A DNA stretch of 64,000 bases from an uncultured bacterium (lineage in GTDB: Bacteria > Omnitrophota > Omnitrophia > Omnitrophales > Abzuiibacteriaceae), in NCBI GenBank assembly GCA_964387845.1, contig CAYLXA010000011.1, positions 1 through 64,000 on the forward strand, in the 5' to 3' direction. Shown one piece after another: positions 12,101 to 52,258 of the stretch (position 1 is the first letter of the stretch; every line of letters begins with the position of its first letter). The notes beneath the pieces were generated by a model that saw only the letters and a program-made list of their open reading frames with translations, did not search any database and had not been told where the DNA came from. The translations under genes and the position numbers were made by a program.

Positions 12101-15100
12101 GCCTGATTCCAACTATCCGTCAAATGGCGCTGACGGAGAAGAACGCGCTCTTAAGATCTCATGCCATTATTTTCTTTCTCGCTCTGTCTTTGCGGTATCC
12201 TCAGTTCAGAGGAAGCCGAAGGACGTTAAAACGCTTAGCGCCCGAATTGGAGCGGTATGTGCTCGAAGGGAAGGATTCCAACATGACTCAAACGGGTATT
12301 TTAGTTCTTGAGCATCTTTGGCGTCAGTTAGACAAAAATCCGGAGCGCTTCGAAACATTTATCAGCCGGTATATTTTCGGAGAAAACCATGCGCCGACCG
12401 GAATTCGGCGTACTGAAACTTATTGGGCGGGCAAATTAGCGCACTCCGAAATCTCGGAAAAGATGCCGACTCTGGACCGGATTCTGGCTAACAATGATCA
12501 GTTATCTCGTTTTCTCACTTTTCTTTCCGTTATGCGGCTTGCTTATCCTTATAGCATGATTAATGGTAGTTATGAGCGCCCGATTGCTTGGGCTAAGAAG
12601 AACCAAAAGATTTTTAAGCTCGACGAGCTCCGCATTGCGTTTGTCAGTGAATCATACCGCCGCCATATTATTTTTACGGAAGACCAAAGTCTTGCACTCG
12701 AAATAAAATTCCCAGGCGAACGCGCTTCAAGCGGCGATGTTTCGAAAATTCACGTGACATTGGCCGAAAAGTTGCGGCAGCAGCCTAAGGGTGAAACGGT
12801 GGTCAGCGAACCACTCTTTTTTATAGGTTTGAAAGGGTTATTCAATCTTTATGGCCCCCGGGAAACCTCGATTGAATATAAAGAATTTCCTTTGGGAATT
12901 GTGGGGTTCCGGTATCAAGACTCGAAACGTTTGCGTAATGTGCTTGAAGATAAAGAATTGTGGCAAGCATTTGTTGAGGAAGCTTATGGGCCATCGGACA
13001 AGTATCAACAAAAGGCCTATGTGCGGATTGCTGCGGATTTAATTATTTTTGCACTCAAGATTCATGAATTGGGTTATCAGGCCAGCACGCGCCGCCTAAC
13101 GGATCTTCACCTTGAAAATTTTGCGCTGTTGCCCGACGGCCACGTTTTTTCCGTGGCTGATTTCGGAATTTATTCCCGTAGCGGCAGCCGTTTAACCAAA
13201 TTCCGTAAAAGAAAAGAAACAAGCGGCCTGCTTGCTGCATTAACGGCTTACAAAAGCAGTCTCATTAGCGCTTGGGACAATCCGACATTTGTCATGGAGG
13301 TCGTTGACGCTGTTTTGGTTAAACTTTTAACAGGCGTTACCGATCCGGCAGAAAGAACAGAAATCATTCTGCGTGTCTTTGGGGAAGTGCGGGATATTTT
13401 TGAAAAAGTCGGCATTTCACCGCTATTCGAGGATGCGCTTGTGCGGGCTTGGGATGTTAATCAAGAGCCGGATGGATATGAAGTCCGTCAAAAAATTGCA
13501 AAATCCATCATTTCCAGATCGGTTATCGCTATTGGAATCGCATCCGATGCGTGGTCTGCGCTTCGATACGACAAAGATCAAGAAAGATTGATTACATCAC
13601 CGCTTCCGGACGATCTTGTGCATCGATTCTGGGATCATCCGGAATTGTTGCAACCGCTAGAACCGGTATTGCTAAGTGATAAAGAAGTTAATCTTCTCGA
13701 TAAAGCTTTCAAGCTTCTGCCTGAAGTGGATCGAAACCAGTTTACGTCGGATCCTAATTCTATGATCGTGTTAATGAAAGGAATGGATGCGCACATTGCA
13801 GAATCAACGATTGATTTCAAAAGATTGACGAACCCGCACGCCTATCACGACTTGGTGTCACCGCGTTTCTTTTTTGACCAGCGGCTGATCAAAGACCCGT
13901 TTGAATTCATGAAAATACTTCACAACGAGATCAAACTGCGGAATGCGATTCTTCAGAGTTTAACCGAAGATGAAATCGCGATGCTAAAAAACCGTCATTT
14001 GCCGGCTGAGCTTCAATCGAAAATCATGAAAAAAACACAGGAAACCAGAGATTTGCAGTGGGACACTTACTTTCGATCAGCCGGAAAGCAAGAACCCAAT
14101 CAAGAACAATTAAGTCTTTTGGAGGACCTTATTGTCTATGGTGCGCAGGATCATTTGCATAAAACATTCGAGTCTCCCGCAGAAGCTTTGTTGGCATTAG
14201 CAAAATCATTAGGAGAATTGAAAGGCGCTCAAAAGAAACGAACTCAAGATTTTCTATTTTACATTCACAACGAAATTTTATCTTTGATTCTGCTCAATCC
14301 AGATGCGGACTTAGATTTAAGAATATCGGCGGTTGTCTATGAGATAGAAAAGGCCAAGTTAGAATCGTTTGCGCTTTTGACTGCCGAGCCATTGGCACGG
14401 CATTTGGAGCGTATCTACGACCGGCATAAAAACGTCCGGCTGCGTGTTGTAATTCTTCGCTTCCTAGCAATTGTTCATGAGCAAGTTGAGCGGGAGATGA
14501 GAGATAATTTAAAGTCAGGGGACAATTTAGTTAAAACTCGTTACGTCGTCGAATCGATTGCCTGGAGGATGGCAGTCGGCGTTTTGAAAAACAATAAAAG
14601 CAAACGTGTCGAAAAGGAGATCGTTAAACTTTTGCTGCAGCTTTTACGGCCTTATGCCGCGGTCTCTCAAAAACCGAATCATGGGCAGTTACGTCTGCTT
14701 CTTGAGGAGGCTGTGATTTACATAAACCAGAATATCGAAAAAGATCCTTCAAAGGAAAAAAACAAGCTGCTTGCCCTGGCAATTTTAAGCAGGCAGATTC
14801 CGATTGCAAGCGACTATTTGGAAGCTGCGCTATTGCGGTATATTTTCGATTCAGATGACATTAAAGGAATACGGATGCGAAAGTCTGGCTATCCGGCGAG
14901 CGATGCTATTCAGCCTTTTGAACAAAGCATGCCCACGCTTATTCAAATATTGAAAAACAAGCAGTATTTAGCGCGTTTCATGGTTGCGCTCAGTATTTTG
15001 CGTGAAGCTTTTCCGTACCACGTCCCCAATTCGCATGATTTTAATGAAGACCTGCTTGAAACCGTAGAAACCAGTGGCGCCGTGCGGCTGAAAGAGCTCT

Positions 15101-18100
15101 TAATCGCGCCGCTTATGCATGAATATTCAAGCCACTTGGTTTCCACAGAGGACGGCCGCAATGTTTTGCGGCTGGTGATTCCGGGCGATTCTGTGCGGCA
15201 TTTTAGTAACCATCTTCGGAAAAATCATGTAGGCAAAAGAAATTTATTATTTTTTATTCCCATCCTCGGCGTCCCATTTTTGTATGGAGCTCTGGATTCC
15301 CATCGACTTTCGGGGTTTGCGGGTTACCGGGAACGCGCCAGTGAAGGTTTGACCATGAAAGAAATCAGAAGGCGTGAAATGATGAATGATCGGATTCCAT
15401 CGTTGGTCAGGACGATCTTGACGCACTTTGGCCAGAAGTATGATGCATCGGCGCTTCATGAAGCATTGGTTCGTCAGGATGTCAATCAGATCACAAAACT
15501 CATCTTCAGCGATGAATATTATCAAGATTTCAAGCAATGGCTGCTCAATTATATGCGGAACGTTTTTCATATGGAAGAAAGCGAAGTTCCGGATGCCTTC
15601 CGGCGTGCTTTAAAACAATACTTTGAGAAGAAAGAATCGCTAGGCCGCACAGAAGCAGCCGTAAAAAAATCAGCAGAAGGAAGCGACGCTCAATCAAAAT
15701 CCCGTTCAGAGCTCAGGGCAGGTGAGTTGTCCGCGGAAGTCCAATTGGCCAATGAGATCACCAAAGCCGTCACAAATTTTGCATTGTGGAAATCATCGGA
15801 ACACAAAATGTCGGTCTCTCGTCAGCAAATGCAAGGCTATAGAGATGCGCATCGGGAAGCGGATGCTTTGGTTAAGGCCGGAATCAAAACTTTGTTACTT
15901 TCCAGGGAAAGGGCAAAGCTCATTCAAGCTCGAACTGCAGTTCAACAGGCTATGAACCAGAGCGGCGTGACGGCAAAGGCAAAGAAAAGATACGAGTTTT
16001 ATATTGGGTTGCTCAATCAAGCCACCGAAAATCGTTCCGTCCCGACTCACAATAAAACGCCGGATCAGACTTCCGTTGAATATCCTCGCAATTCTTCAAT
16101 GAAAGCCAGAGCCGAGTTGCGTTCGAATCAAGCGTATCTTTGGAAATCGAAAATTACATTGGAATTGGCAAGCCCGGCCGGGAAGCCGGACGCTCCTAAA
16201 CGGTATATATTTGAAATAGAAGGCCGCAAATTCATGACGTTCGATGATCCTGATTCGGCCATTGAAATTGTGGGCGAAAGAGCGACCGATCTTGGTGTGC
16301 ACGATCCTTTTCTCAGTATTATGATCACCGAATTGCTGCCGTGGATTTTTGTTGAAAGCTTCAAAAATAGGAGGGTACGCCAACCAGACGGAAATTTTGC
16401 GCTTCAATTTCCGGAACTTGATTCCGGAGAAAAAGATATATTGGAAAGCGAAGTGCAGGTTGCTTTTGGTATTGGGAGTCAGCCGAGTTATGTTGCGTTT
16501 GGCCCCCGATGGTATCGCTTACCCGAGCGCGAATCGATTAATCAGATTGTCAATCAGGCCACCGATAGTTTTGCAGGTGATGATTCAATCGAAAAGCGTG
16601 CAGTGCCGGCTTTGGTGACTTTGGTCAAAGTTTTGAATGACGAAAGCCGAAGCGATGTTGAAACTTACATCGAACAGAAATTTGGTCCGCATGAATTCTT
16701 AAAACGTATGCTGACTTCCGAGAGAGTTACAAAAAACACTTTTTTTGATTTTGTCCGCCGTAATTTATTTTTGGAGCGGATCGGTGAAAAGTGGTTTCCC
16801 TACGGCCTATATACAGATACTAGGCGGTCTGAGCTAAGGCATGATTTTCGCTTTCTCCTAGGAATAGAGCGCGAAGAAGAAATGCAGAAAATCTTCGACA
16901 AGATTAAGCGGGGAGATTCCAACGACATCGAGCAAGCCTTAGGTTCCTTGATTGATTTTATCGGTACGATTCCCAATTTTTTAGATGACCGAAAGTGGGC
17001 GGAATTAAGGAAGTGGATTGCCCGGAATGTGGTTGGCAGCATCAATGTTTCATCTTTTAATACAGCCGGTATTCAAGATTTACTTATCCGTTTTTACAAT
17101 ATCCTGCCGGGCCCTACGACATTGGCTCTGTCTGCTTCGCTGGATGATGAAACCGAATTTGGTGAGCGCATATTTATATTAACTTTCTTATTAGCGGGTA
17201 TTCAAGAATCCGAAAACATAGCAAAGGTTGTATTGCGCAATCGTGTTTTTCAACGAGAAGCAAGCCGGCCAAAAACCGATAATGAAGCCCAGCTTTTTAA
17301 TCAAATTCACCAAGCAATCGATAGAAAAATTAAAGATCAGGCTTCGCCTAGCCCGGCTGCCGGGGAATTATCCGACCCACGATCTGAGCTTCGGATTGCG
17401 TTTACGGATGAGCTTCATCCGGAATTGTTAAGCAGGGAATTTGCAGACGAAAATTCGATCCGAAACAATTTAATAGAGGTTATGAGCGAGCCCAAGACTC
17501 GTGTGGAACTGTTGGGAATTAAAACAGGCGAGTTCATTCAGCGCACGATGGGCAAGATGCAGGTTGTTTTCGAGAAAACCGGCGAACGGGTCGATTCCCT
17601 GACGGGTGAACATGTTATAGAAATCGAATTTAATGTGATTGCGACAAAAGTTCATACCGAGTCCGGAACTATCGAAGCGCGAACGAAACCAAACAGCCGG
17701 TTGTTTGAAGGGCTAAATGCCGGTATCGTGCCGGAAATTAAAATTCGTTTTAACACGGCAATGACGAACGGGATTCGTGCGGTCAATGCGCGCCACGGGG
17801 AAATGGACGAAATTTTCGCTTCTCAAGTTCCGGATTTGGCGAGCGGTTTGGAACGTGTCGGACCCATTGCGGGCCATGATCTTATTTTCGGTGAGGATGG
17901 ATCGCCGCTTTTTGCGGAATATTTTCTTAAAAGATTCGGCGTTCTGGCCGTCGTTACGAGTTCACAAGCTGAAGAAGACTTTTTAGATCCGATCCGGGAT
18001 GACTTACAAAACGGGGAAGTGTTGATTGTCGCTCAAAGTTTTGAAGAAGCGCGCTTGGAACTTAGGAAAAGGGGATTTACGAATCAATTATTGCTTGTTT

Positions 18101-18249
18101 CCGAGTTTGATTTCGTTTCTGATTCGGTTAAGTCACGGGCCTATCAAATGAAAGTCTTCAGCAGGTCTGAAATGCGGCGGTTGCTTTCGGTTGTGGAAGA
18201 GGCAGCCATTCAAATCCGTTCGGAGCTCCGGACAGCCGTTTCGGCGTAA
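172..18249 (+). CDS. giant multi-domain membrane protein (6025 aa): N-terminal signal/TM, HEAT-like repeat arrays, acyl-CoA dehydrogenase-like domain, alpha/beta-hydrolase domain, APH/kinase-like motif, multiple TM clusters; recurrent SRSELR motif
   Basis: Single uninterrupted ORF from the six-frame track. Domain-level similarity in one frame throughout: ACAD motifs (PEEFGGSGLS, LNGTKRFITN, FEGMNDV), hydrolase GYSMG nucleophile elbow, HEAT-like AAAAYA repeats. The likely true start is ATG at 181, preceded by GGAAGGA; the TTG at 172 is the track start. A hydrophobic N-terminus (IIFLKVVAITLCFTFSVTSTIAYG) suggests a signal peptide or anchor. Stop is TAA at 18247-18249. Confidence 0.8.
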   Translation: MEGMSNYPPARIMRSQIIFLKVVAITLCFTFSVTSTIAYGDSSVIIESFKHNAWHVTPAFPGNKPAQLLDFARKADLVVASGRAELRAKELQATSLKLQSDPSALKVLKPEAEESRSELRNEEGELMKRPRARRDAREDAAEIEPAVETEAVVQAEDAEINYNHFAQRIINEPVGKLLIDKSMVEQIGKLNVPQFKQMFYMDVGALNAYFVLYTMIKENRELNPAIHDHILTEEAKEREKTAAADKAVQAKAQEQEVTARDTASKVKLVEKKRAKSQKKEAGIDTIERVQLAPVEATKLTQGLFRRTLSKYKQLWKQIRQNNLDKKDRALVMATNIMLLGGAAFSTMLWVSTDFGKYAAWFGYLSTVFLSEAGLPLFVNFVGTIDEMVLDVKAVNATERFIESLDRFEEFFRRMPLNPITEKGLIKGIRSLPAEIQLELKKISEGKDWDYRNLEKWYEIRRNQVIRILRKADLVIPGELENAPAWQEEENGGNPRVHRGKLLKLVSEAVNDSRNANRVEEYRKWAEKYKKARTLLRKIKGLNEEEMHLLAVQLTTTSFYGHPELEKRLVRAFSRIEKRQKNADQAVFLDREEGSSYTFSAQGLVDYVAARFRLSESDYDLEIDPVPPDFVNQVRIRSELRISFLQKLAIITTLLTAFFIPNTSKASTIPVGFMPPIDSAYLHSEGVREIRDDEKNVWQYQKYSNLDILTAAAVLNATRESPNASVDAGVIGVFRNERKPLEERILAATVLMLKQKDFKKEAGDFLVKILHDETKPGLDRTMAAAAYARLIDESSHKKTHKFAMDYLVRVLYDADKPYAERLYAASAYALFKAGRDYIDGPNYKTTIEYAMSILVSALHDEEAPVSHRLIAAAAYAGLDDMNFGDTHEYAIRYLKQVYQNPKSQFSNRVTAAAALLAADEYDSEDKFLALMLRLPSFDKKGNVVNERTPVDLLDAIQNGALTDAGAHAVKEKLKTILDEGRLNHDVGLLVRYAEVLENPTAVDFAEIVKLVSAVLPDEENRLEFWFDIAKKVQDPEKFNFNSYVLKNLLTDPVLDPAQVPDQEIMEFLIKNHPDQELRKQLKVRMKESQWQMVKGTQVVYLALVFMVGVGISIQQMKARRRSELRSILIELWNSVQTIARDPIYGPSYAICFGLMAYMVIKFGPRRGSFFPGSSRNIERMIRAKFKNASPSDLDQARTIVKELRDKIEKNLERPHFEIRYVLPAIIQSANSVEQLRKFVESLGVWKDAGWFDRLIGGVLPLSLVGRLGEAPLLVGNPYEKPAIEKAMKGIARAIQSSDEFREGFETVVIFFEKLKQATARKKYFRNESIISPQVAWEELLQKAHQIRMQHGDFTVSFQPEEREIINNRYTDKVLQHQVISVNEPSVASARSVPTHNKMPGTSIDGKVGTAQTSDENSSGSSMKVRAELRQASSRMRAKQERLFTERAASRRIARIDRWFQHYHDDYDMNWNPEFFASKHETFLDRIKTQLRDFEIENEAIDIAIEQSMSILIAGVPGGIIRAFLKRFTNMVHRHIYGPVAVEEINDRMRHFKERIDRSLESAASLDERRRLMKGYRLKHGYLWIDNVRTSFEELPVDHSTASTVKVIGPREMKIHQIAGYFENILHRKRGLLTDQKDHEILKFLVGRLTDSDPWVVKAAVWGINRIADRMDPVLKQFILERYYEILSGNHSEVARGSIARSIREVFNPQSLDVALEMLKTEQTEWVQTYLVEVIQTIVSQSDKKSLRYKHSRDIIEQLLEKAVGDPDAKRSHIMLRVGSIKALAELLWYDPEVLDRLKEMVLTEPDSTIQEAAMWALARLHVATPEGMAQIDSLLETLTAYLESSHAGRKNVFLEQYARQLLFWLQRLSSNRDLKAKILSMKRTNPDFSLTEKIILGALNQIEKYTKRLKLLEHANWIFELFQSAIFRRARSGSARTLTAYHDRLKAQAKRDAVYFSGRAMNPVILLDIDAILPKEGDEAAKASESDHVFDILKSFMDRGWSVVATDRYREERDAAHFNVAQGAEMKLKSKVLRQAIKFLASNRPIRIPSKDWSRGKRHQRMSGLLVPVPDEPIVVLVHGPELWMVKDIMPGTFSGIVSVGDYKDASNGVYLDKLIDAIEKKANGRIVQREPSRSELRHGPEDFVRDETARMVRELVGTFYKKSVYPFAHEIDKGNIRIEDQILEEAAQAGLFGLAIPEEFGGSGLSPILKIIADIIGWYINPSVALSIGVHNSVVKGPIQDYGTEEQKKKYLTKLASGELIGGYALTELEAGSQALSKRFPLQTTAVPVEVDGKQYYKLNGTKRFITNARFAGVFVGFAMLGDERRVFIIDRDLEGVSVGEDEQKSGLKGSSTADLILQDVLVPAENLIPGDGIKIGMSTMSQGRLSIAASALGGSMRIFDDTLEYSKLRKQFGGPIWQFGGVKQTLAEMAADLYAQESVVYAVASLLTEGKVNAAFESAVAKVFVTEKFNHIAQKGVKTHGGAGYISDTPTARIGQDAIVTEIFEGMNDVLYSNVIAALYLKKLMTEGNQVLNISDYGQFYPEIQKLSSLIGQTGKVILGKFGTLTPENQDEYMAFGKMASEFYAIVSAVRRTRKITSEINPDDPKLKHFLDVTRLVVARGTKRIRDEASHFVDPDVFGVSSDQRKYFELTRGIAEHLVVNPPKRIVEFNASNESQSSRAELRLDPVYLVDLTVFGLLAILPSWFALKLTTERYAKRTIDQLYSPAVQEEMDANRSFNVNFLTFFYDRAVHWVRFLVISFLHGFSAWVASYYAFAMYYPAASIFWPLVAAAAAFGASGVSLWIRDKKQVRQKITVAAQIPAKQIHGKFELNFDLVFGFDLRELLDGKTGEEQALQNLRAKVEEQVERIAANKGAVPAEVGKVLVPVTPESFASTGPNFKVEGLRGQFTVRIPRSNINTMHSFPLNVTSVYLGGQKIAVGTVFFEKNKDARSELRSEGAAKSAFSNFLASVPEDSEKWKSFLREQLALFAAEWVKLPGELQNFFPEETHLFQEFTADNIPAVNLDNFFKLAAVRDAVVDFMPKLNQSSSLPQNAEAVQIPGFNGALLDGWVIRAADSKQENHPAFLILPPWGDDISKYGKLAELLHQEFPSFHVIGLDYTKDPNLETILNTGGIAESFDIEAVIRALSRFSDLKIDPSKITGIGYSMGANTLAILQKRTGLLSHFVPIGLHDSYASVLAGYYENVHIPRIARIVTRRGYSFIDWTDPMIREHAKRLLIEARLRMNQFTIARREIPVKPEDDPFLDLAETASSLQIPVHFVFEEESDLLQESVRDFYRALAGQMNESGRTAQYNTYPGKHNKIDPASLVSDLKTFLTSRSELTSARAEPKTISASSQSAMMSELRKQNHFILFVAGSILFWAGCLMTEQKPVSEMPAETPIEQIAETSEPVTNAPADDISEPAEIQKQPRAPPKSEFETLLEALETGNDDERWDAAKTLSRSANSAASGTFLKALQDSNSLVRREAIIFFRYHHDPRAPKVLIELYRKELDLGIRSDIVETLGILQSAEAVSFLIQRIKREDGAAFYVLKRALVRIGVQAIEPLIDAIRFEYNKELAAKYEETLREIFRNPDAAEQRKKAEKHWYEAVRRAALGITSRSELRKFHEPKPQASGVDAGIYIEGLEKVIRANRFSALRYDRTKKRWVMTSILIDGKKRKGLLLSRKQLDGVNLAFSTLHQKLQKEMTEKSNARIIFVKGLMPILGNHMPWVQRPAGLSGFSKPDFILDRNAAYNPLALLDQFEYEIRRKRLMAGQFSPAEKRELIRNPNTFDLRVKFKQVYLEAHAQLIQDNVINSRDELSFYDSTQRTRLLELVILQAAQEATQVRYRSVENALKALDEAAKDGNHSGHQVAIGILALHASDIAARLIKKSDNESIKIAALDYIASALIDQDTASPAIEITGGLHHEIRNILTNSKNPRLKAAALQLFTVLIYVQLVDSNEKLNALEYHYANLELVIRSLIPTIRQMALTEKNALLRSHAIIFFLALSLRYPQFRGSRRTLKRLAPELERYVLEGKDSNMTQTGILVLEHLWRQLDKNPERFETFISRYIFGENHAPTGIRRTETYWAGKLAHSEISEKMPTLDRILANNDQLSRFLTFLSVMRLAYPYSMINGSYERPIAWAKKNQKIFKLDELRIAFVSESYRRHIIFTEDQSLALEIKFPGERASSGDVSKIHVTLAEKLRQQPKGETVVSEPLFFIGLKGLFNLYGPRETSIEYKEFPLGIVGFRYQDSKRLRNVLEDKELWQAFVEEAYGPSDKYQQKAYVRIAADLIIFALKIHELGYQASTRRLTDLHLENFALLPDGHVFSVADFGIYSRSGSRLTKFRKRKETSGLLAALTAYKSSLISAWDNPTFVMEVVDAVLVKLLTGVTDPAERTEIILRVFGEVRDIFEKVGISPLFEDALVRAWDVNQEPDGYEVRQKIAKSIISRSVIAIGIASDAWSALRYDKDQERLITSPLPDDLVHRFWDHPELLQPLEPVLLSDKEVNLLDKAFKLLPEVDRNQFTSDPNSMIVLMKGMDAHIAESTIDFKRLTNPHAYHDLVSPRFFFDQRLIKDPFEFMKILHNEIKLRNAILQSLTEDEIAMLKNRHLPAELQSKIMKKTQETRDLQWDTYFRSAGKQEPNQEQLSLLEDLIVYGAQDHLHKTFESPAEALLALAKSLGELKGAQKKRTQDFLFYIHNEILSLILLNPDADLDLRISAVVYEIEKAKLESFALLTAEPLARHLERIYDRHKNVRLRVVILRFLAIVHEQVEREMRDNLKSGDNLVKTRYVVESIAWRMAVGVLKNNKSKRVEKEIVKLLLQLLRPYAAVSQKPNHGQLRLLLEEAVIYINQNIEKDPSKEKNKLLALAILSRQIPIASDYLEAALLRYIFDSDDIKGIRMRKSGYPASDAIQPFEQSMPTLIQILKNKQYLARFMVALSILREAFPYHVPNSHDFNEDLLETVETSGAVRLKELLIAPLMHEYSSHLVSTEDGRNVLRLVIPGDSVRHFSNHLRKNHVGKRNLLFFIPILGVPFLYGALDSHRLSGFAGYRERASEGLTMKEIRRREMMNDRIPSLVRTILTHFGQKYDASALHEALVRQDVNQITKLIFSDEYYQDFKQWLLNYMRNVFHMEESEVPDAFRRALKQYFEKKESLGRTEAAVKKSAEGSDAQSKSRSELRAGELSAEVQLANEITKAVTNFALWKSSEHKMSVSRQQMQGYRDAHREADALVKAGIKTLLLSRERAKLIQARTAVQQAMNQSGVTAKAKKRYEFYIGLLNQATENRSVPTHNKTPDQTSVEYPRNSSMKARAELRSNQAYLWKSKITLELASPAGKPDAPKRYIFEIEGRKFMTFDDPDSAIEIVGERATDLGVHDPFLSIMITELLPWIFVESFKNRRVRQPDGNFALQFPELDSGEKDILESEVQVAFGIGSQPSYVAFGPRWYRLPERESINQIVNQATDSFAGDDSIEKRAVPALVTLVKVLNDESRSDVETYIEQKFGPHEFLKRMLTSERVTKNTFFDFVRRNLFLERIGEKWFPYGLYTDTRRSELRHDFRFLLGIEREEEMQKIFDKIKRGDSNDIEQALGSLIDFIGTIPNFLDDRKWAELRKWIARNVVGSINVSSFNTAGIQDLLIRFYNILPGPTTLALSASLDDETEFGERIFILTFLLAGIQESENIAKVVLRNRVFQREASRPKTDNEAQLFNQIHQAIDRKIKDQASPSPAAGELSDPRSELRIAFTDELHPELLSREFADENSIRNNLIEVMSEPKTRVELLGIKTGEFIQRTMGKMQVVFEKTGERVDSLTGEHVIEIEFNVIATKVHTESGTIEARTKPNSRLFEGLNAGIVPEIKIRFNTAMTNGIRAVNARHGEMDEIFASQVPDLASGLERVGPIAGHDLIFGEDGSPLFAEYFLKRFGVLAVVTSSQAEEDFLDPIRDDLQNGEVLIVAQSFEEARLELRKRGFTNQLLLVSEFDFVSDSVKSRAYQMKVFSRSEMRRLLSVVEEAAIQIRSELRTAVSA
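2395..2950 (+). other. tandem ~47-aa HEAT/ARM-like repeats (motif R..AAAAYA.L.D....YA..YL..VL.D...P, 4-5 copies) inside giant ORF
   Basis: Repeated protein motifs AAAAYARL / AASAYALF / AAAAYAGL / TAAAALLAAD at regular ~46-47 aa spacing in the translation. Confidence 0.5.
4336..4455 (+). repeat. intragenic direct repeat copy 1 (encodes SVPTHNKMP...SSMKVRAELR) in giant ORF
   Basis: About 90% nucleotide identity to 16034-16122 over ~90 nt (cgttccgtcccRactcacaataaaaYgccgg ... cagacttccgWtgaa ... ttcttcaatgaaagYcagRgccgaRttgcg). Copy 1 has a ~30-nt insertion. Confidence 0.75.
6655..7745 (+). other. acyl-CoA dehydrogenase (ACAD)-like domain embedded in giant ORF
   Basis: The translated segment KSVYPFAHEIDKG...FEGMNDV carries canonical ACAD N-, middle- and C-domain motifs: GLFGLAIPEEFGGSGL, GGYALTELEAGSQ, LNGTKRFITNA, GGAGYISD, FEGMNDV. 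It begins directly after SRSELR copy 4. Confidence 0.75.
9350..10140 (+). other. alpha/beta-hydrolase fold domain (serine hydrolase, GYSMG nucleophile elbow at 9661-9675) embedded in giant ORF
   Basis: HPAFLILPPWGDD...HVIGLDY...GIGYSMGANTLAIL... followed later by Asp/His candidates (HFVFEEESD..., PGKHNK). Typical order of an a/b hydrolase with a G-X-S-X-G motif. Confidence 0.6.
10500..10870 (+). other. PBS-lyase/HEAT-like repeat module in giant ORF
   Basis: ERWDAAKTLSRS...LVRREAIIFF...PKVLIELY...IRSDIVETLGIL...AVSFLIQRI resembles E-Z type HEAT repeats. Confidence 0.4.
12990..13180 (+). other. protein-kinase-like (APH/LPS-kinase/ELK superfamily) catalytic-loop + DFG motif in giant ORF
   Basis: ...ADLIIFALKIHELGYQASTRRLTDLHLENFALLPDGHVFSVADFGIY. 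DLHLEN (13102-13119) matches the HGDLHPGN/HRDLKPEN catalytic loop (D...N). ADFG (13156-13167) matches the DFG metal-binding motif at canonical spacing. Confidence 0.4.
16034..16122 (+). repeat. intragenic direct repeat copy 2 (encodes SVPTHNKTP...SSMKARAELR) in giant ORF
   Basis: See copy 1 at 4336-4455. Near-identical nucleotide stretch despite otherwise unrelated flanking sequence. Confidence 0.75.
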
Positions 18250-23951: not shown

Positions 23952-24536
23952 ATGAAATGCATCGTTGGGCTTGGAAATCCCGGAAGCGATTACGAAAACA
24001 CCAGGCACAATGTCGGATTTATGGTCATCGATTTATTGCGGCGCGGATCGGTCAGCCGTGAGAAAGATTCAAAATTGTATTGGCACGCTCTTTTAAAAGT
24101 TGAGAATTCCGAAACGGTTTTGGTTAAACCCAAAACCTTCATGAATTTAAGCGGTCAAGCGGTGCTGGAAGTTTTCAGCGAATTTTGCGAAGCCAAACCG
24201 GAAAATTTGCTCGTTGTTGTTGACGACGTAAACCTGCCTCTCGGTCAAATCCGAATCAGATCCAAAGGAAGTTCAGGCGGCCATAACGGCCTCGAATCCA
24301 TTATCGGTATGCTAGGTACCAGTCATTTTCCACGTTTAAGAGTTGGTATCGGTAAGGAAGGTCTGGCAGGGCAGGATTTAACAGATTATGTGCTGGGCAA
24401 GTTCACGAAGTTGGAAAGCGAAAAGCTTTCCGATAGTTTACGCCGGGCCGAGATGGCTTGCAAAGCATGGACGGCTGAGAATATCGTAGCGGCGATGAAT
24501 TTGTTTAATCAGAAGGATGTTCCGGATCAGGAATAG
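23952..24536 (+). CDS. pth: peptidyl-tRNA hydrolase
   Basis: MKCIVGLGNPGSDYENTRHNVGF motif. Confidence 0.9.
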   Translation: MKCIVGLGNPGSDYENTRHNVGFMVIDLLRRGSVSREKDSKLYWHALLKVENSETVLVKPKTFMNLSGQAVLEVFSEFCEAKPENLLVVVDDVNLPLGQIRIRSKGSSGGHNGLESIIGMLGTSHFPRLRVGIGKEGLAGQDLTDYVLGKFTKLESEKLSDSLRRAEMACKAWTAENIVAAMNLFNQKDVPDQE

Positions 24537-32851: not shown

Positions 32852-32968
32852 TTCATTTTAAATCACTTACGCTAATTCCGATAGAAACTTTGAAATAGTT
32901 GTATACATTTTTGTAACAGTCATATACCATACCGCTCTTAACAATTTTGTAATATAGAGAAAAATCAA

Positions 32969-33772
32969 ATGGCAAAAATTGGGCTCATAGCAGGAAACGG
33001 AAAACTGCCGATCGCAATTGCTCGGGAAGCAAAGTCATCGGGTTTTGAAGTGCATGTGTGCGCGATTAAAGGCGAAGCGCTTCAGGATTTAGAAAAAATA
33101 GCGGACTCTATTGAATGGGTAAAGCTCGGCCAACTCGGAAAACTCATTCATTATTTTCACGCTCAAGATGTTCGTGACGCTGTAATGGCGGGCAAGATTA
33201 CGAAAACCAATATTATGAAAGGCGACATCATTCCGGACGTTGAAATGGTGAAGATGGTTGCCGGAATCAAAGACCGGAAAGACGATACGCTGCTTGGCGC
33301 TGTCGCCGATTATTTGGGCCGGAAAGATATCCGAATTTTAAGTTCCGTAAAATTTCTTGAAGATTCGCTACCGAAAACCGGTGTTCTGAGCAAGCGCAAG
33401 CCCAAAAAAAGCGACGAAGAGGAAATTGATTTTGCGTGGCAATTGGCCAAACAAATCGCCGGGTTTGATATCGGCCAGACGGTTGTTACCAAAAACAAAG
33501 CCGTCCTTGCCGTTGAAGCGATCGAGGGAACTGACGAAGCCATTTTACGCGGCGGAGAATTGGGCGGCGGCAGCGTCGTGGTTGCGAAAGTCGCCAAACC
33601 GAATCAAGACATGCGGTTTGATGTTCCGACAATCGGGCTTCAAACTTTGGATGCCATGGTGCGTGCCAAGGTCGATATTCTCGCAATCGAAGCGGGGAAA
33701 ACGATCCTGCTTGAAAAGGACGAATTTTTGAAGAAAGCGGATCAGTATCACATGCTGGTCGTCGCGAGGTAA
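32969..33772 (+). CDS. lpxI: UDP-2,3-diacylglucosamine hydrolase LpxI (DUF1009 family)
   Basis: MAKIGLIAGNGKLP... N-terminus and ~270-aa size are typical of LpxI; lipid A gene neighbourhood. Confidence 0.7.
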   Translation: MAKIGLIAGNGKLPIAIAREAKSSGFEVHVCAIKGEALQDLEKIADSIEWVKLGQLGKLIHYFHAQDVRDAVMAGKITKTNIMKGDIIPDVEMVKMVAGIKDRKDDTLLGAVADYLGRKDIRILSSVKFLEDSLPKTGVLSKRKPKKSDEEEIDFAWQLAKQIAGFDIGQTVVTKNKAVLAVEAIEGTDEAILRGGELGGGSVVVAKVAKPNQDMRFDVPTIGLQTLDAMVRAKVDILAIEAGKTILLEKDEFLKKADQYHMLVVAR

Positions 33773-33778
33773 AAGAAG

Positions 33779-35335
33779 ATGAAAAAAGACGATTTAAGCG
33801 GGTTAAAGCGCGAGGTTAAGGAATTAACAGCGCTCAACGAAATTTCGAAAGCCATTTCGTCTTCCCTCAATTTAGAAGAAGTGGTCCAGAAAATGATGGA
33901 CGTGCTCCATCAGCATTTGGGCATGGAGCGGGGCACGCTGACGCTTCTTGACCCCAACACACAAGAGCTGACAATCGAAGTTGCGCGCGGCCTTGACCGG
34001 CATGCCATTGAGCGGGGAAAATACAAGCTCGGCGAAGGCATTACCGGAAAAGTGGTGCAATCCGGCAAGCCGATCGTGGTTCCCAATATCGGTGAAGAGC
34101 CGCTTTTTCTTGACCGTACAAAATCACGAGGTGATTTAAAAAAGGCTAACATTGCTTTTATTTGTATTCCCATCCGTCTCGGCCAGCGAGTTGTCGGAGC
34201 GCTGAGTGTCGACCGCTTGTTCCAGGAAGACATTTCATTTGAAGAGGATTTGCGCCTTCTCAACATTATTGGTTCGATGGTGGCGCAAGCCGTCCGAGTC
34301 CACGAACTCGTCGAAGAAGAAAAGCGGTCACTTACCATTGAAAATCAACAGCTTCGTACGGAACTCAAGAAAAAATTCAGGCCGGATAACATCATCGGCG
34401 ACAGCAAGCGGATGAGTGATGTTTATTCGGCGATCCAGCTTGTCTGTAAAACCAAAGCCACGGTTTTAATCCGCGGCGAAAGCGGTACCGGAAAAGAACT
34501 TGTGGCGCATGCGATTCATTATCAAAGCGACCGTGCGAACAAACCGTTTATCAAAGTATCCTGCGCTGCACTTCCCGAAACCCTGCTTGAGAGCGAGCTC
34601 TTCGGCCATGAAAAAGGGGCATTTACTGGCGCCAATGCCATGAAAATGGGCCGGTTTGAACTCGCCAATGAAGGAACGATTTTCTTGGACGAAGTCGGTG
34701 AAATGAGCCGCGCGACGCAGGCGAAGCTGTTGCGCGTTCTTCAGGAACGAGAATTTGAACGCGTCGGCGGCGTCGAAACAATCCGCATCAATGTGCGTTT
34801 GATTACGGCTACGAACCGTGATCTTGAAAAAGAAGTCAGGGAAGGGCGTTTCCGGGAAGATCTTTATTACCGTTTGAATGTGGTTCCGATCTTTATGCCG
34901 CCGCTTCGGGAGCGGAAGGAGGATTTAACCCTGCTTGTGAAATATTTTCTCGAGAAGTTTAATAAAGAAAATAATAAACAAGTGAAGCATTTAAGCGAAG
35001 ACGCTTGGGATCATGTGATGGGTTATTCGTGGCCGGGCAATGTCCGGGAGCTTGAGAACGCAATCGAGCGCGCGATGATCATGTGCCAAACTGATACGAT
35101 TTCACGTGAACATTTTCCGATTGATTTACAAGCACGCATTTCACCTATTCAGGAAATCATCAATAGCACCAATGCGGATTCTGGGCCTGATTTACTGAAA
35201 GCGGTCGAAGCGCTTGAAAAGCGCATGATTATGGATGCGCTCCAAAAAACTGCGGGCAATAAGCGCAAAGCGGCGCAGACGCTGGGGATCACAGAACGAA
35301 TTCTGGGCTATAAGGTTAAAAATTATAATTTGTAA
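33779..35335 (+). CDS. sigma-54-dependent transcriptional activator with N-terminal GAF domain (NifA/NtrC-like) and C-terminal Fis-type HTH
   Basis: AAA+ sigma54-interaction motifs [33 protein letters not shown]; C-terminal HTH ([19 protein letters not shown]). Confidence 0.9.
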
Positions 35336-35452
35336 GAATCGCCCTTTTTTATCTGAAATTCTTCCTTTTATTTCCCCCTTGCTTGCAAAAGGCGTTGCAG
35401 TACAATAAGTCCTTCATGTTTAATAGCCCTTCTAAATTCTAATACGAGCTTA

Positions 35453-37183
35453 TTGATGCAAACACTCATTAAACGTGTTGACCGCCCCAGAGAATTAAGC
35501 TGGTTTCAGGCCGGCGCCATGCTGTACGGTGACTGGGGGACGAGCAAAGCCTACGTGCTCGGTATCGCATTTGCGCTTTCAGGCCACGCATCCTGGTTCT
35601 TTCTCGGGTTGATGTCCGGGCTTACGGCTTTGGTGGGCGTTTGTTATATCATCATCTGCCGTATTTATCCGGACGGCGGCGGCGTTTATTCTTCCGTCAA
35701 ACATCGCTCTAAGAATTTGGCCGTGGTCGGCGCTCTTCTATTGGTGGCTGATTATGTGATTACGGCTTCACTGAGCGCGCTTGAAGCGTTTCACTATTTC
35801 AATGTACCGCACCCGGAAATTTGGGCAATTTGCGTCATTATTTGTATCGGAATTGTGAATTGGGTCGGTCCGACAAAAAGCGGAAGCGTTGCGGTCTTTA
35901 TTGGCCTTACCGCATCAATAACCGCCGGCGTTTTGTTTTTCTGTACACTTCCTTCTTTGCCGCACGTTGAGTTAAGTTGGCCGCAGGGTGATTGGTTTCA
36001 AAATTGGGCGAATTTTACGGGAATCGTTTTAGCGTTATCCGGAGTTGAAGCCGTCGCTAATATGACGGGCATCATGAAAAATCCGGTTGATCAAACAGCC
36101 AAAAAGGCCATTTGGCCGGTCTTGTTAGAAGTATCGGTATTAACTTTTTTGCTCGGTGTTGCCATGAATGCAATACCGGGACTGACGGGCCACACCGAAG
36201 ATATGTTGAGAGCGCTCGGCAGTCACTTTGTGGGTCCCTGGTATGGCCAATTGATTTCCATCGTTTTCGGATTTTTGCTGCTGTCAGCAACCAATACGGC
36301 AATCGGAAGTTTGGCAAGCCTTCAATTTTCGCTCGCTAAAGACGGGGAGCTGCCGCATGTTTTTGCAAAACTAAACCGTTTCGGCATGCCGTTTGTAGGG
36401 TTGATGGTTGCAACCGCACTTCCTGTTTTGATCCTTATCTTAGAGCATGATGTTCTGCATTTGGCCGCGCTTTACGCGATCGGTGTTGTGGGCGCGATTA
36501 CGCTCAATATCGGTGCTTGTGCGACCAATTTTCAAATTCAAATCGGCAAGAAAGAAAGATTATTATTAACGATTGCTGCCATTATTCTTTTGTTGATTGA
36601 GCTGACTATTGCTTATCAAAAACACCACGCCCTCATCTATGTTTTGAGCGTGATTGGTATCGGTTTATCTCTCCGATATCTTGCAAAACTGGTCTTGCCG
36701 GCTCCTGTGGTTGAGCAGATTCCCGAAGTTAATGTGTTAACCGTTGCCGAGGCAAAGGAAATTGCGCCGCTTTATAAAAGTTCATCGCTCGTAGCGCTTA
36801 AATCCTTAAATCCATTATTGCTCGAAGAGGCTGCCTTAAGACTGAAAGCGCGGAAAGAAAATTCTATCTATTTAACCTACGTTGAAGAAAGTCCCGCAGG
36901 CCGTGAACTGCCGACGGAACTTGCACCTTCGATTGAATCGATGGCACTTTTGGAGCAAGCGCAGAAGGCTTTGGAAGAGCGCGGCATTACCGCAGTTCCG
37001 ATTTGGCGGTTCGGTGAAGACCCGGGTAAATTAATTGCCGATGCCGCGCGCGAGTTGAATGTCAATACGGTTATGATCGGCGCAACCCGTAGGAGCGCTC
37101 TCATTAGTCTGTTAAGAGGCGATGTGCTTCGAACTCTTGCCAAACATCTTCCCACAGGTTGTCATCTCCTCATTAGCGGATAA
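35453..37183 (+). CDS. APC-family permease fused to a C-terminal universal stress protein (UspA) domain
   Basis: About 12 TM segments with an APC-like N-terminus, then a C-terminal ~140-aa Usp-like alpha/beta domain (…NVNTVMIGATRRSALISLLRGDVLRTLAKHLP). Confidence 0.7.
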   Translation: MMQTLIKRVDRPRELSWFQAGAMLYGDWGTSKAYVLGIAFALSGHASWFFLGLMSGLTALVGVCYIIICRIYPDGGGVYSSVKHRSKNLAVVGALLLVADYVITASLSALEAFHYFNVPHPEIWAICVIICIGIVNWVGPTKSGSVAVFIGLTASITAGVLFFCTLPSLPHVELSWPQGDWFQNWANFTGIVLALSGVEAVANMTGIMKNPVDQTAKKAIWPVLLEVSVLTFLLGVAMNAIPGLTGHTEDMLRALGSHFVGPWYGQLISIVFGFLLLSATNTAIGSLASLQFSLAKDGELPHVFAKLNRFGMPFVGLMVATALPVLILILEHDVLHLAALYAIGVVGAITLNIGACATNFQIQIGKKERLLLTIAAIILLLIELTIAYQKHHALIYVLSVIGIGLSLRYLAKLVLPAPVVEQIPEVNVLTVAEAKEIAPLYKSSSLVALKSLNPLLLEEAALRLKARKENSIYLTYVEESPAGRELPTELAPSIESMALLEQAQKALEERGITAVPIWRFGEDPGKLIADAARELNVNTVMIGATRRSALISLLRGDVLRTLAKHLPTGCHLLISG

Positions 37184-37314
37184 AAATTCTTCCGGCACAT
37201 TTTTGTGAAAAACCGACAAAAATGTAGTTTTGAGGCTGTTTCTAGCCTGACTTTTTAGGGCCTGTCAGTTTTATTACCTCTAATATCCCGTCTTTTATTT
37301 TGAGAGCAAGCGGA

Positions 37315-37331
37315 TTGGCATGACGCTTGCT
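37315..37331 (+). promoter_or_regulatory. sigma-54 (-24/-12) promoter TGGCAT-N6-TTGCT upstream of amt-glnK; flanking direct repeats agagcaagcg (37302-37311, 37372-37381) are candidate activator sites
   Basis: Sequence tTGGCAtgacgcTTGCt gives GG-N10-GC with correct spacing, ~95 nt upstream of the amt ATG. A sigma-54 activator gene lies two genes upstream. Confidence 0.5.
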
Positions 37332-37426
37332 ATTCAAGCCGCTAATTGAAAGTCCGCCCTCTATCCTATTTAGAGCAAGCGCTGGCAATCAAAATCAAAA
37401 AAACCCTGATAAGGGAGGATAAAATT

Positions 37427-38809
37427 ATGGAAATCTCAGAAGTCAAAATAATGGCAGATACAATATGGGTGCTGCTGGCAGCCATGTTGGTGTTCTGGAT
37501 GAATGCCGGATTCGGATTGGTGGAATCGGGCTTTGCACGCGCAAAAAACTGCGTGAACATCCTGTCGAAAAATTTCATCGTATTCGCAGTCTCCAGTATC
37601 GCGTTTTATTTCTTAGGCTGGGGCTTAATGTTCGGCGATGGCAATCCGTTTATGGGTTTGCAGGGCATTTCGATGTTGGGCGGCGCTGATAATAGCCCGG
37701 CGTCTGGAGATGCTTATCAAGGTGTTTACAGCGCAATTAGTTGGGCCACCGTTCCTTTGTTGGCAAAATTTTTCTTTCAGCTCGTGTTTGCAGGAACGGC
37801 GGCAACGATTGTTTCCGGAGCGGTAGCGGAAAGAATCAAGTATGTTTCCTTTATTGTGTTTTCATTTATTCTTGTCGGGTTAATTTATCCGATCGTCGGC
37901 CATTGGATTTGGGGCGGCGGATGGCTGGCAAGCGCAGGCATGTGGGATTTTGCAGGTTCAACGGTTGTGCACTCAGTGGGTGGCTGGGCGGCACTGGCCG
38001 GTATTTTGGTGTTAGGTCCTCGCTTTGGAAAATATGGAAAAGATGGCAAAGTTCATCCGATTCCGGGCCACAACATGAGCACCGCAACGCTTGGTGCTTT
38101 TATTCTTTGGCTCGGCTGGTTTGGATTTAATCCGGGCTCCACAATGGCAGCTGCTGTGAATGATATTGCGCGTATCTGCGTGACCACAAACAGTGCTGCG
38201 GCTGCGGCAATTTTGAGCGCAACCATCGTTTCCTGGATTTTGCTCGGAAAACCGGATCTTGGCATGACCATCAATGGTTGCTTGGCAGGTTTGGTTGCCA
38301 TCACGGCACCTTGCGCATTTGTGAGTGTTAACAGCTCGCTTATTATCGGAGCACTTGCAGGTGCATTGGTGGTTGTGGCAGTTATTTTCTTTGACAAGGT
38401 TAAAATAGACGATCCCGTTGGTGCTTTGTCAGTTCATTTGGTGAACGGCGTATTTGGTACCATTTGTGTCGGCCTTTTTGCGCAAGCGGATATATTGCCG
38501 AATACCACCGGAAACGGGTTATTTTATGGCGGCGGCGCCACACTTTTAATGGCACAATTAAAAGGCATTGCTGCAACCGGCGCGTTTGTGTTCATCGGTT
38601 CGCTCGTTGCATGGTTTATCATTAAGGCGCTCATGGGTATCCGCGTGACCTTGCATGAAGAAATCGAAGGTCTTGATATCGGCGAACATGGCAATGCGGC
38701 CTATCCGGAATTTGCGGGCAGAAAGCAAAGCTACACTTTTCTCGGGCTTGGCAACCGCAGTGAATTGACGTCGGAAGCTGAGAAAAAAGAAGAGTACGCA
38801 AAAGTTTAA
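37427..38809 (+). CDS. amt: ammonium transporter
   Basis: Track ORF 37346-38809. The true start is ATG 37427 with SD GGGAGG. Amt/MEP/Rh signatures and 11 TM segments. Confidence 0.9.
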   Translation: MEISEVKIMADTIWVLLAAMLVFWMNAGFGLVESGFARAKNCVNILSKNFIVFAVSSIAFYFLGWGLMFGDGNPFMGLQGISMLGGADNSPASGDAYQGVYSAISWATVPLLAKFFFQLVFAGTAATIVSGAVAERIKYVSFIVFSFILVGLIYPIVGHWIWGGGWLASAGMWDFAGSTVVHSVGGWAALAGILVLGPRFGKYGKDGKVHPIPGHNMSTATLGAFILWLGWFGFNPGSTMAAAVNDIARICVTTNSAAAAAILSATIVSWILLGKPDLGMTINGCLAGLVAITAPCAFVSVNSSLIIGALAGALVVVAVIFFDKVKIDDPVGALSVHLVNGVFGTICVGLFAQADILPNTTGNGLFYGGGATLLMAQLKGIAATGAFVFIGSLVAWFIIKALMGIRVTLHEEIEGLDIGEHGNAAYPEFAGRKQSYTFLGLGNRSELTSEAEKKEEYAKV

Positions 38810-38851
38810 GCGCATATTCGCACCATAAACTTCTTAAAGAAAGGAACGAAA

Positions 38852-39193
38852 ATGAAAAAGATTGAAGCAATAATTCGGCCCGAAAGGCTGGAAGAAGTGG
38901 TCGAGGCGCTTGAGCGCGCAGGATATCCCGGTATCATGATTACCGAGATCGAAGGCCATGGGCTCCAGAAGGGCGTACGCCAGCAATGGCGCGGTGAAGA
39001 GTTTCAGGTTAACTTTCTGCCGAAAGTGAAGGTCGAGATCGTCGCCAATGAAAAAGAAGTGGATAGTATTGTTGACGCGATCATTCGGTCGGCCTCTACA
39101 GGCGGAGTCGGTGATGGGAAGATATTTGTTTCCAACGTTGATGAAGCGATCCGGATCCGCACGAAAGAACGCGGCGTCAAGGCGCTCAGTTAA
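38852..39193 (+). CDS. glnK: P-II nitrogen regulatory protein (GlnK-type, amt-linked); Tyr51 of T-loop replaced by Phe
   Basis: Aligns along its length to GlnB/GlnK (…GHGLQKGVRQQWRGEEFQVNFLPKVKVEIV…DGKIFVSNV…IRIRT). The T-loop is RGEEF rather than RGxEY. Confidence 0.85.
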   Translation: MKKIEAIIRPERLEEVVEALERAGYPGIMITEIEGHGLQKGVRQQWRGEEFQVNFLPKVKVEIVANEKEVDSIVDAIIRSASTGGVGDGKIFVSNVDEAIRIRTKERGVKALS

Positions 39194-39220
39194 TTCGGTT
39201 AACTGAAGTTACAAAATTTA

Positions 39221-39253
39221 GGGGCAGTCCTTCGGGGCTGCCCCTATTTTTTT
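39221..39253. terminator. rho-independent terminator (ggggcag-N10-ctgcccc + T8) after glnK, abutting the lpxB 3' end
   Basis: GC-rich 7-8 bp stem followed by tattttttt. A second perfect small hairpin cagttaa-ttcgg-ttaactg (39187-39205) spans the glnK stop. Confidence 0.7.
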
Positions 39254-52066: not shown

Positions 52067-52258
52067 TTATTTCGGAACGGCGCCGTCAAGTGTCTCGAAC
52101 ACAATGGTGACGAGGCTGTGGCAGCGCGGGCACTTGATTTGCTTGAAAGCTTGGATGTTGTCGTGTTTGGGCCGGTACATAATGCTCAAGATCTTGGTTG
52201 AGAACTTGGCTTCTTCGCCGGACCACTGACAGGATGTACAAGCGTATGTCTGTTTCAT
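52067..52258 (-). CDS. small zinc-ribbon protein (CxxC…CxxC), hypothetical
   Basis: 63-aa ORF convergent with surE. Cys pairs CTSC and CPRC. No clear SD. Confidence 0.35.
   Translation of the reverse strand: MKQTYACTSCQWSGEEAKFSTKILSIMYRPKHDNIQAFKQIKCPRCHSLVTIVFETLDGAVPK

Follow-up and report, generated by a model that had tools for sequence, protein, structure and literature searches.

Predicted sigma-54-dependent control of an amt-glnK operon by a neighboring NifA-family activator in an uncultured Omnitrophota bacterium

Which regulator governs the ammonium transporter gene amt and the PII gene glnK in a bacterium from an unstudied phylum? The question is raised by a stretch of 64,000 nt (hereafter the window) of contig CAYLXA010000011.1, assembly GCA_964387845.1, from an uncultured Omnitrophota bacterium of the Abzuiibacteriaceae, in which amt-glnK lies downstream of a gene for a NifA-family enhancer-binding protein. 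A sigma-54 promoter and an enhancer-binding protein ahead of amt-glnK form a textbook system, and in enterobacteria the NtrB/NtrC pair controls glnK-amtB and glnAp2. Our literature searches for a described nitrogen regulator of Omnitrophota returned nothing relevant. The original prediction for this locus was that of a coherent nitrogen-control unit comprising the activator gene, a permease gene, a sigma-54 promoter, amt and glnK. The sigma-54 amt-glnK operon and the neighboring activator withstood our analysis, whereas the inclusion of the permease and the assignment of the enhancer sites did not. We consider it highly probable that amt-glnK is a sigma-54 operon served by the NifA-family activator, which would bind a pair of ACA-N4-TGT palindromes and repress the operon, headed by lpxI, in which it is itself encoded. 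The class of system is a familiar one; what the phylum adds to it is a clearly delimited new member, with a distinct upstream motif and a conserved leader. The elements that carry the argument are as follows.

33779 to 35335, + strand: gene of the NifA-family enhancer-binding protein, 518 amino acids (Pfam domains GAF, Sigma54_activat, AAA_lid_14 and HTH_8)
37197 to 37225, no strand assigned: candidate upstream activating sequence ACATTTTTGT-N9-ACAAAAATGT, two 10-bp ACA-N4-TGT palindromes
37316 to 37331, + strand: predicted sigma-54 promoter TGGCATGACGCTTGCT (TGGCAT-N5-TTGCT), GG at 37317-37318 and GC at 37329-37330
37427 to 38809, + strand: amt, ammonium transporter (Pfam Ammonium_transp, E=1.2e-120; NCBIfam TIGR00836, 416 against a cut-off of 343)
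38852 to 39193, + strand: glnK, PII signal protein (Pfam P-II, E=1.2e-30)
39219 to 39246 (or to 39256), + strand: predicted intrinsic terminator of amt-glnK, a 12-bp stem with 8 G-C pairs followed by a T-run, the top terminator-like match

The start codon of amt is the ATG at 37427, preceded by the ribosome-binding site AAGGGAGGA, and amt-glnK is a two-gene operon. Open reading frames (ORFs) and Pfam domains agree with the earlier calls of the activator, a permease with a Usp tail, amt and glnK.

The promoter TGGCATGACGCTTGCT fits 10 of the 11 specified positions of TGGCAC-N5-TTGCW, with GG and GC exactly 10 nt apart. A -24/-12 promoter had been proposed at this place with a spacer of six nucleotides; the element holds, but its spacer is N5, which gives GG-N10-GC over 37316-37331. 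As also proposed, 95 nt separate the 3' end of the promoter from the ATG of amt. The predicted transcription start, placed from the position of the -12 element, lies near 37342, and distances given below are relative to this predicted +1. Exact matches to TGGCAY-N5-TTGCW number one in the window (0.16 expected; at least one in 15 of 100 shuffles), and by itself such a match carries little weight; what makes the prediction convincing is where the element lies, which way it points and that it is kept in 12 of 12 related loci.

These loci come from a comparison set of 11 Omnitrophota loci (L084-L094, about 15 kb each) collected through homologues of the activator, together with two collected through homologues of Amt. 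The 12 loci with a nitrogen operon are the window, L084, L086-L093, L095 and L096; L084 and L095 are the closest relatives, with 90% and 93% Amt identity to the window, respectively. The pattern TGGCAY-N5-(T/A)TGC(A/T/C) precedes the first nitrogen gene, be it amt, glnK or glnA, in all 12, at 44-121 nt from the start codon (in L091 the called start lies too far upstream and a corrected one was used). It could be argued that the -24/-12 match is due to chance or is a relic, and that transcription of amt comes from a sigma-70 promoter or runs on into amt from the permease gene upstream. The occurrence of an exact match somewhere in 64 kb in 15% of the shuffles and a weak sigma-70-like match at 37159-37187 would fit such a reading. 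It does not account for an element that is present in 12 of 12 loci, that keeps its position relative to the first nitrogen gene whatever gene lies upstream, and that forms a conserved island within a diverged spacer, and we give it next to no credence.

Control by sigma-54 appears as well beyond the phylum. A genome scan based on Amt yielded 80 loci from many phyla, none of which shares the synteny of the window; among the 76 that were testable for a promoter, a sigma-54-like one precedes amt or glnK-amt in 21, where about 4.5 would be expected, so that sigma-54 control of amt is common. Elsewhere in the window, a -24/-12-like sequence with one mismatch, GGGCACTTGATTTGCT, lies at 52128-52143 between surE and a tRNA gene pair, probably by chance.

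Upstream of the promoter, all 12 loci carry two ACA-N4-TGT palindromes with an A/T-rich core (consensus TACAAWWTTGTA). In the window the pair occupies about -145 to -117, with 19 bp from start to start, and ACATTTTTGT and ACAAAAATGT form a perfect 10-nt inverted repeat that is unique in the window even when three mismatches are allowed. A distance of 19 bp between the two sites is the most frequent (eight loci); one locus has 18 bp and three have 29-32 bp. The pair lies about 54-134 bp upstream of the promoter; an upstream activating sequence is expected 70 bp or more ahead of a -24/-12 element, and the pair fits this, with distances under 60 bp in L090 and L093. Single sites have a background density of 0.15 per kb. 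Among all 96 fetched loci, the composite pattern ACAN4TGT-N9-ACAN4TGT was found in seven, once in each and always directly upstream of a nitrogen operon. Between the window and L084 or L095 the intergenic islands that have been kept are the site pair, the promoter and the amt leader, and the remaining spacer has diverged; at the 4-fold degenerate sites of amt, the window and L084 are 49% identical, i.e. nearly saturated. The co-occurrence of pair and activator suggests that the pair is the putative docking site of the activator. The original prediction had missed this pair, as well as a pair before lpxI and the amt leader, both described below.

It had instead assigned the enhancer function to two copies of a direct repeat that flank the promoter.

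37303 to 37312, + strand: upstream copy of AGAGCAAGCG, about -39 to -30
37372 to 37381, + strand: downstream copy of AGAGCAAGCG, about +31 to +40, within the leader

The repeats exist, although the first copy is at 37303-37312 and not at 37302-37311. They are exact, lie 69 nt apart in the amt upstream region, and their 8-nt core recurs as a third, inverted copy in the -12 region, of which it is the reverse complement (CGCTTGCT); all this could be held to favor the two copies as enhancer sites of the activator. The repeat is not, however, beyond chance (P about 0.045): when the 243-nt region was shuffled with its dinucleotides kept, 4.5% of the shuffles contained an exact direct repeat of 10 nt or more, as did 18 of the 263 tiles of that length cut from the window itself. 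The one-mismatch copies of AGAGCAAGCG in the window (12 against 4.4 expected) owe their excess to matches inside coding sequence. L084 and L095, the loci closest to the window, lack the upstream copy at the corresponding position, and the remaining nine nitrogen-operon loci keep the promoter but have neither copy. Positions near -39 and +31 are, moreover, unsuited to an enhancer. The downstream copy is conserved in L084 and L095 because it is located in the leader, whose own conservation accounts for it. Taken together, we see practically no prospect for the two repeats as the activator's enhancer sites. The segments 37288-37312 and 37357-37381 are 76% identical over 25 nt, with TGGCA after both copies. 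The upstream copy is lineage-specific and probably non-functional, or a degenerate partial duplicate of the leader hairpin segment; it may have arisen by partial duplication within this lineage or by chance. An inverted repeat formed by AGCAAGCG and CGCTTGCT was considered as an operator or hairpin and rejected, as it is not conserved in L084 and L095.

Nothing speaks more strongly for a role of the activator in nitrogen regulation than its conserved linkage to nitrogen genes. In the window the activator gene is preceded by the first gene of its operon.

32969 to 33772, + strand: lpxI (Pfam LpxI_N and LpxI_C), first gene of the activator operon

The whole block is flanked by lpxI (+) and lpxB (-) within a lipid-A/BamA cluster, and a fixed backbone, dnaB-bamA-ompH-lpxC/fabZ-lpxA-lpxI-activator-[variable genes]-lpxB, runs through the loci. 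The genes lpxI and activator are 7 nt apart in the window and overlap in most relatives (around 7001-7004 in L086-L088 and L091-L093); adjacency or overlap of the two is found in 11 Omnitrophota loci. Nitrogen-assimilation genes lie 3' of the activator in 10 of the 11 loci L084-L094, and L096 is a further case. The variable genes that follow the activator are arranged as listed here.

permease-amt-glnK: the window and L084; L095 shows only the 3' end of the permease gene, then amt-glnK
amt-glnK-glnA: L086, L088, L091 and L092
glnK-glnA: L087
amt-glnK: L089 and L096
glnA alone: L090
permease-amt-glnK-glnA: L093
a receiver-domain gene only: L094

The earlier claim that the regulator is the activator encoded 2 kb upstream of the promoter gains from this linkage in 10 of 11 loci and from the presence of the promoter in each such operon. 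One operon ties the envelope-biosynthesis gene lpxI to the nitrogen regulator throughout the phylum. In L086, the glnK-glnA spacer (10573-10694) carries a near-perfect inverted repeat, ACACAAATGCAGGG(G)TGA...TCACCCTGCATTTGTGT, with one unpaired G and a T-run, a predicted strong terminator or attenuator that would imply separate or attenuated expression of glnA.

A second pair of sites precedes the activator's own operon.

32905 to 32950, + strand: putative autoregulatory operator in the lpxA-lpxI intergenic region, ACATTTTTGT at 32905-32914 and ACAATTTTGT at 32941-32950, 19 nt before lpxI

With a weight matrix trained solely on other, more distant Omnitrophota loci, the sites at 32905 and 32941 are the two top matches in the window (17.0 and 16.2 bits, matrix starts 32902 and 32938). 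Equivalent pairs lie before lpxI in L084 and L086-L090. In several loci the lpxI pair flanks a -10-like hexamer, e.g. TGATATAAT in L090 and TATAAT in L087, and downstream of the lpxI-upstream pairs no space is left for a sigma-54 promoter; in the Bdellovibrionales locus L048 a matching arrangement precedes that locus's own activator gene. NtrC acts as a repressor at glnAp1 and glnLp, and by analogy we infer negative autoregulation of the lpxI-activator operon. Further regulon members sought by the weight-matrix scan were rejected: a match at 24066 lies inside pth and has an imperfect triplet, and the counts of matches of at least 10 bits do not exceed those of shuffles.

The site pair recurs outside Omnitrophota. 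Strict pairs, with a spacing of 30 bp, lie upstream of amt operons in L010 (Leptospirales), L043 (Spirochaeta), L044 (Acidobacteria) and L048 (Bdellovibrionales), and a pair with one imperfect site lies upstream of amt in L053 (Acidobacteriota). The pair is followed by a sigma-54-like promoter in L048 (porin-amt) and L053 (amt), and by a -24/-12-like sequence with AG replacing GG in L010. In L007 a pair stands before glnA-gltB, followed by TGGCGC-N5-TTGCT. Each of L010, L048 and L053 also has a gene for a full-length homologue of the window activator, with 46-47% identity. In L048, the first gene after the promoter and ahead of amt is a small ORF (6443-7243) that matches Gcw_chp weakly and may encode an outer-membrane protein, and in L010 a short ORF (about 4835) also precedes amt.

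Several observations weigh against the activator acting at these sites and this promoter. L094 encodes the activator, and its downstream region contains no nitrogen gene, promoter or sites. The sites have been assigned to the adjacent activator from co-occurrence. A Fis-type HTH dimer would call for half-sites farther apart than the 7 bp seen here, the binding register is uncertain and could, for example, be TGT-N9-ACA spanning both palindromes, and the spacing between sites varies (18-19 against 29-32 bp). The sensed signal, considered below, is suggested purely by analogy. Finally, rpoN is not among the scanned ORFs of the 64-kb window, and RpoN is implied elsewhere in the genome indirectly, by the GAFTGA motif of the activator. 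Two of these points, L094 with its activator devoid of adjacent nitrogen genes and a half-site spacing unusual for HTH_8 dimers, would be expected if the promoter and the ACA-N4-TGT sites were real but bound by a regulator encoded elsewhere, i.e. another enhancer-binding protein or a repressor, the adjacent NifA-like protein controlling other targets. Against this, the adjacency of regulator and target is conserved in 11 loci, matching sites precede the activator's own operon, and the sites co-occur with activator homologues in three other phyla. We regard a regulator from elsewhere as improbable, if the most serious of the alternatives, and the activator as very probably the cognate regulator of amt-glnK.

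What kind of regulator, then, is this protein? It consists of a GAF sensor domain (residues 31-172), a sigma-54 AAA+ domain (205-371), a lid and an HTH_8 domain (476-516), and thus combines Sigma54_activat (PF00158, E=3e-74), a GAFTGA motif in the translation and a C-terminal HTH_8 (PF02954, E=3e-11), the hallmarks of an HTH-type enhancer-binding protein. It passes the NCBIfam model TIGR01817 (nifA) narrowly, with 561.2 bits against a cut-off of 528.85, and fails the NtrC model TIGR01818 (360 against 559); its N-terminus is GAF, with no Response_reg match in Pfam. Among solved structures NifA 9qq6_C matches best (E=9e-117), the alignment with Azotobacter vinelandii NifA extending over residues 15-517, and the GAF domain resembles those of Aquifex Nlh1 and Nlh2 (E=2e-32 and 4e-22). 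Homologues at 63-91% identity all belong to Candidatus Omnitrophota and, where named, are named NifA.

A genuine nif-specific NifA, with incidental adjacency to amt-glnK, would explain the TIGR01817 pass, the best PDB match and the names of the Omnitrophota homologues. The protein clears the cut-off by little (561 against 529), however, and no nif gene was found in the window or in the 11 Omnitrophota loci of about 15 kb each, nor any TGT-N10-ACA in the 250 nt ahead of each of the 12 promoters, and it is amt, glnK and glnA that are conserved as targets. We deem a nif-specific role very unlikely. The window activator is like A. vinelandii NifA (9qq6) in its GAF-AAA+-HTH_8 architecture and its TIGR01817 pass; it differs from NifA in its targets, in the missing TGT-N10-ACA, in an inter-domain linker that lacks the CXXXXC cysteine motif, and in its recognition helix. 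The helix T-x-R-I/M-L/I/F-x-Y-K, in a narrower form T-x-R-I-L/I-x-Y-K, is common to the homologues of L010, L048 and L053, whereas that of A. vinelandii NifA reads TPRQIAYR. Proteins that pass the 'NifA' equivalog where nif genes appear to be missing probably activate nitrogen assimilation in general, which would amount to a systematic annotation problem.

In its role the activator is NtrC-like, in that it would serve sigma-54 activation of assimilation genes, with a NifA-type GAF sensor replacing the receiver domain. The locus resembles the NtrB/NtrC system in placing a sigma-54 promoter before ammonium transporter and PII genes, which fits the logic of nitrogen limitation, in having two activator sites about 100-140 bp upstream, and in the probable repression of sigma-70 promoters of the regulator's own operon. 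In contrast to NtrC, the sensor is a GAF domain, with no phosphorylated receiver and no histidine kinase nearby, and the site is ACA-N4-TGT; a search for the NtrC site TGCACC-N5-GGTGCA found none. Unlike the enterobacterial glnK-amtB, the gene order is amt-glnK, and the regulator shares its operon with lpxI.

What the sequences show, namely the genes and the conservation of promoter, site pair and linkage, can be joined with a presumed site-binding protein, signal, transcription start and autorepression in the following scheme. The amt-glnK operon would be transcribed from the sigma-54 promoter at 37316-37331, starting near 37342 and ending at the terminator at 39219-39246. The activator encoded 2 kb upstream would bind the palindromes at 37197-37225, presumably with one HTH dimer per palindrome, and the bound dimers would seed an AAA+ ring that loops over about 100 bp and reaches sigma-54 through GAFTGA. 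The GAF domain may hold the ATPase off until a signal of nitrogen limitation arrives, which, by analogy with NifA, could be 2-oxoglutarate and/or GlnK. At the same time, the activator probably represses its own lpxI-activator operon through the second pair, which straddles a sigma-70-type -10 element.

Two characterized NifA-like or GAF-type systems deserve comparison. Aquifex aeolicus Nlh1 and Nlh2 are NifA-like activators in a non-diazotroph, and to our knowledge their targets and ligand have not been defined. The window protein is like them (PDB 4g3k and 4g3v) a NifA-like GAF activator, a comparison that covers the GAF domain only. The closest characterized functional analogue appears to be the EbpA-RpoN pathway of Leptospira, reportedly the subject of work by Hu et al. 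in 2017. It shares with our locus a GAF-type activator acting with sigma-54 at an ammonium transporter gene, and the uncultured Leptospirales locus L010 has both a 46% identical homologue and a site pair upstream of amt. In a review, EbpA of Leptospira interrogans is stated to activate amtB directly with sigma-54 and to be required for growth at low nitrogen, and is described as FhlA-like with two GAF domains (PMC12655853). Set against that description, the window activator has a single GAF domain.

More broadly, and tentatively, the Omnitrophota proteins and their 46-47% identical homologues in Leptospirales, Acidobacteriota and Bdellovibrionales may constitute a distinct, widespread master regulator of nitrogen assimilation that replaces NtrBC, with a previously undescribed TACA-N4-TGTA site pair, autoregulation through the lpxI co-operon and, in the clade of the window, a leader that is a new cis-regulatory RNA; we rate this extended proposal as somewhat less likely than not. 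For Omnitrophota, a phylum with few or no cultured members, the main reading provides a testable regulon of regulator, site, promoter, amt, glnK, glnA and possibly gltB, and the site motif could help to find nitrogen regulons in several phyla that have received little study.

The third conserved island of the amt upstream region is the leader.

37342 to 37426, + strand: conserved amt 5' leader, about 85 nt from the predicted transcription start to the ATG

Its counterparts lie at 10570-10654 in L084 and 235-318 in L095. The leader is about 92% identical to that of L084, against the 49% seen at the 4-fold degenerate sites of amt, a comparison that gives good support to purifying selection on it. 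A hairpin is predicted at 37346-37392, whose 3' arm holds the UAGAG...GCG of the downstream AGAGCAAGCG, and a 4-bp hairpin (CCCU/AGGG) is predicted at 37404-37415, pairing with the first bases of the Shine-Dalgarno sequence. An identical fold is predicted for the window, L084 and L095, in which 19 of 19 pairs are invariant and the variable columns are all unpaired. These three sequences contain no covariation, and the folding z-score of -1.0 is unremarkable; a structured leader RNA is plausible from the modeled fold. A permissive Rfam scan of 37150-37480 gave sub-threshold chance matches only and no known riboswitch or leader, and the leaders of more distant loci are unrelated.

The gene between the activator and amt remains to be placed.

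35453 to 37183, + strand: permease with C-terminal Usp domain, a membrane protein of 576 amino acids (Pfam Usp at residues 456-568)
35380 to 35413, + strand: candidate sigma-70-like promoter of the permease gene, TTGCTT-16 nt-TACAAT (consensus match only)

The permease had been counted as part of the sigma-54 unit, from which several features now remove it: it lies upstream of the promoter, has a sigma-70-like promoter of its own and is absent from most loci. The window and L084 share the TTGCTT and TACAAT hexamers and the distance between them but not the flanks, and the activator-permease intergenic region shows neither a GG-N10-GC nor an ACA-N4-TGT site. Within the comparison set, the gene occurs in the window, L084, L095 and L093 only, in the last of these 3 nt after the activator gene, and a permease-based metagenome scan gave three homologues (L081-L083, 70-72% identical), none beside an activator or amt gene. 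The Usp domain is clear (Pfam E=1e-9), and the membrane part matches no Pfam transporter family, with weak similarity to APC proteins (ApcT MJ0609, E=1e-4; GABA permease, E=8e-6, far below the cut-off). The permease is an optional passenger outside the sigma-54 transcription unit, possibly related to nitrogen metabolism.

Some features of the window stand apart from the regulatory scheme. E. coli GlnK has Tyr51 and the cyanobacterial protein Ser49. The T-loop of the window GlnK reads ...QQWRGEEF..., with Glu49 and Phe51 (residues 49-51), and this GlnK therefore lacks the usual sites of covalent modification. Rfam at gathering thresholds returned four tRNAs only for the whole window. Giant genes have been reported in Omnitrophota, and a single ORF of 6025 amino acids at 172-18249 (+) fills more than a quarter of the window; HEAT_2 repeats were the sole Pfam matches in the three 1500-residue segments of it that were scanned.

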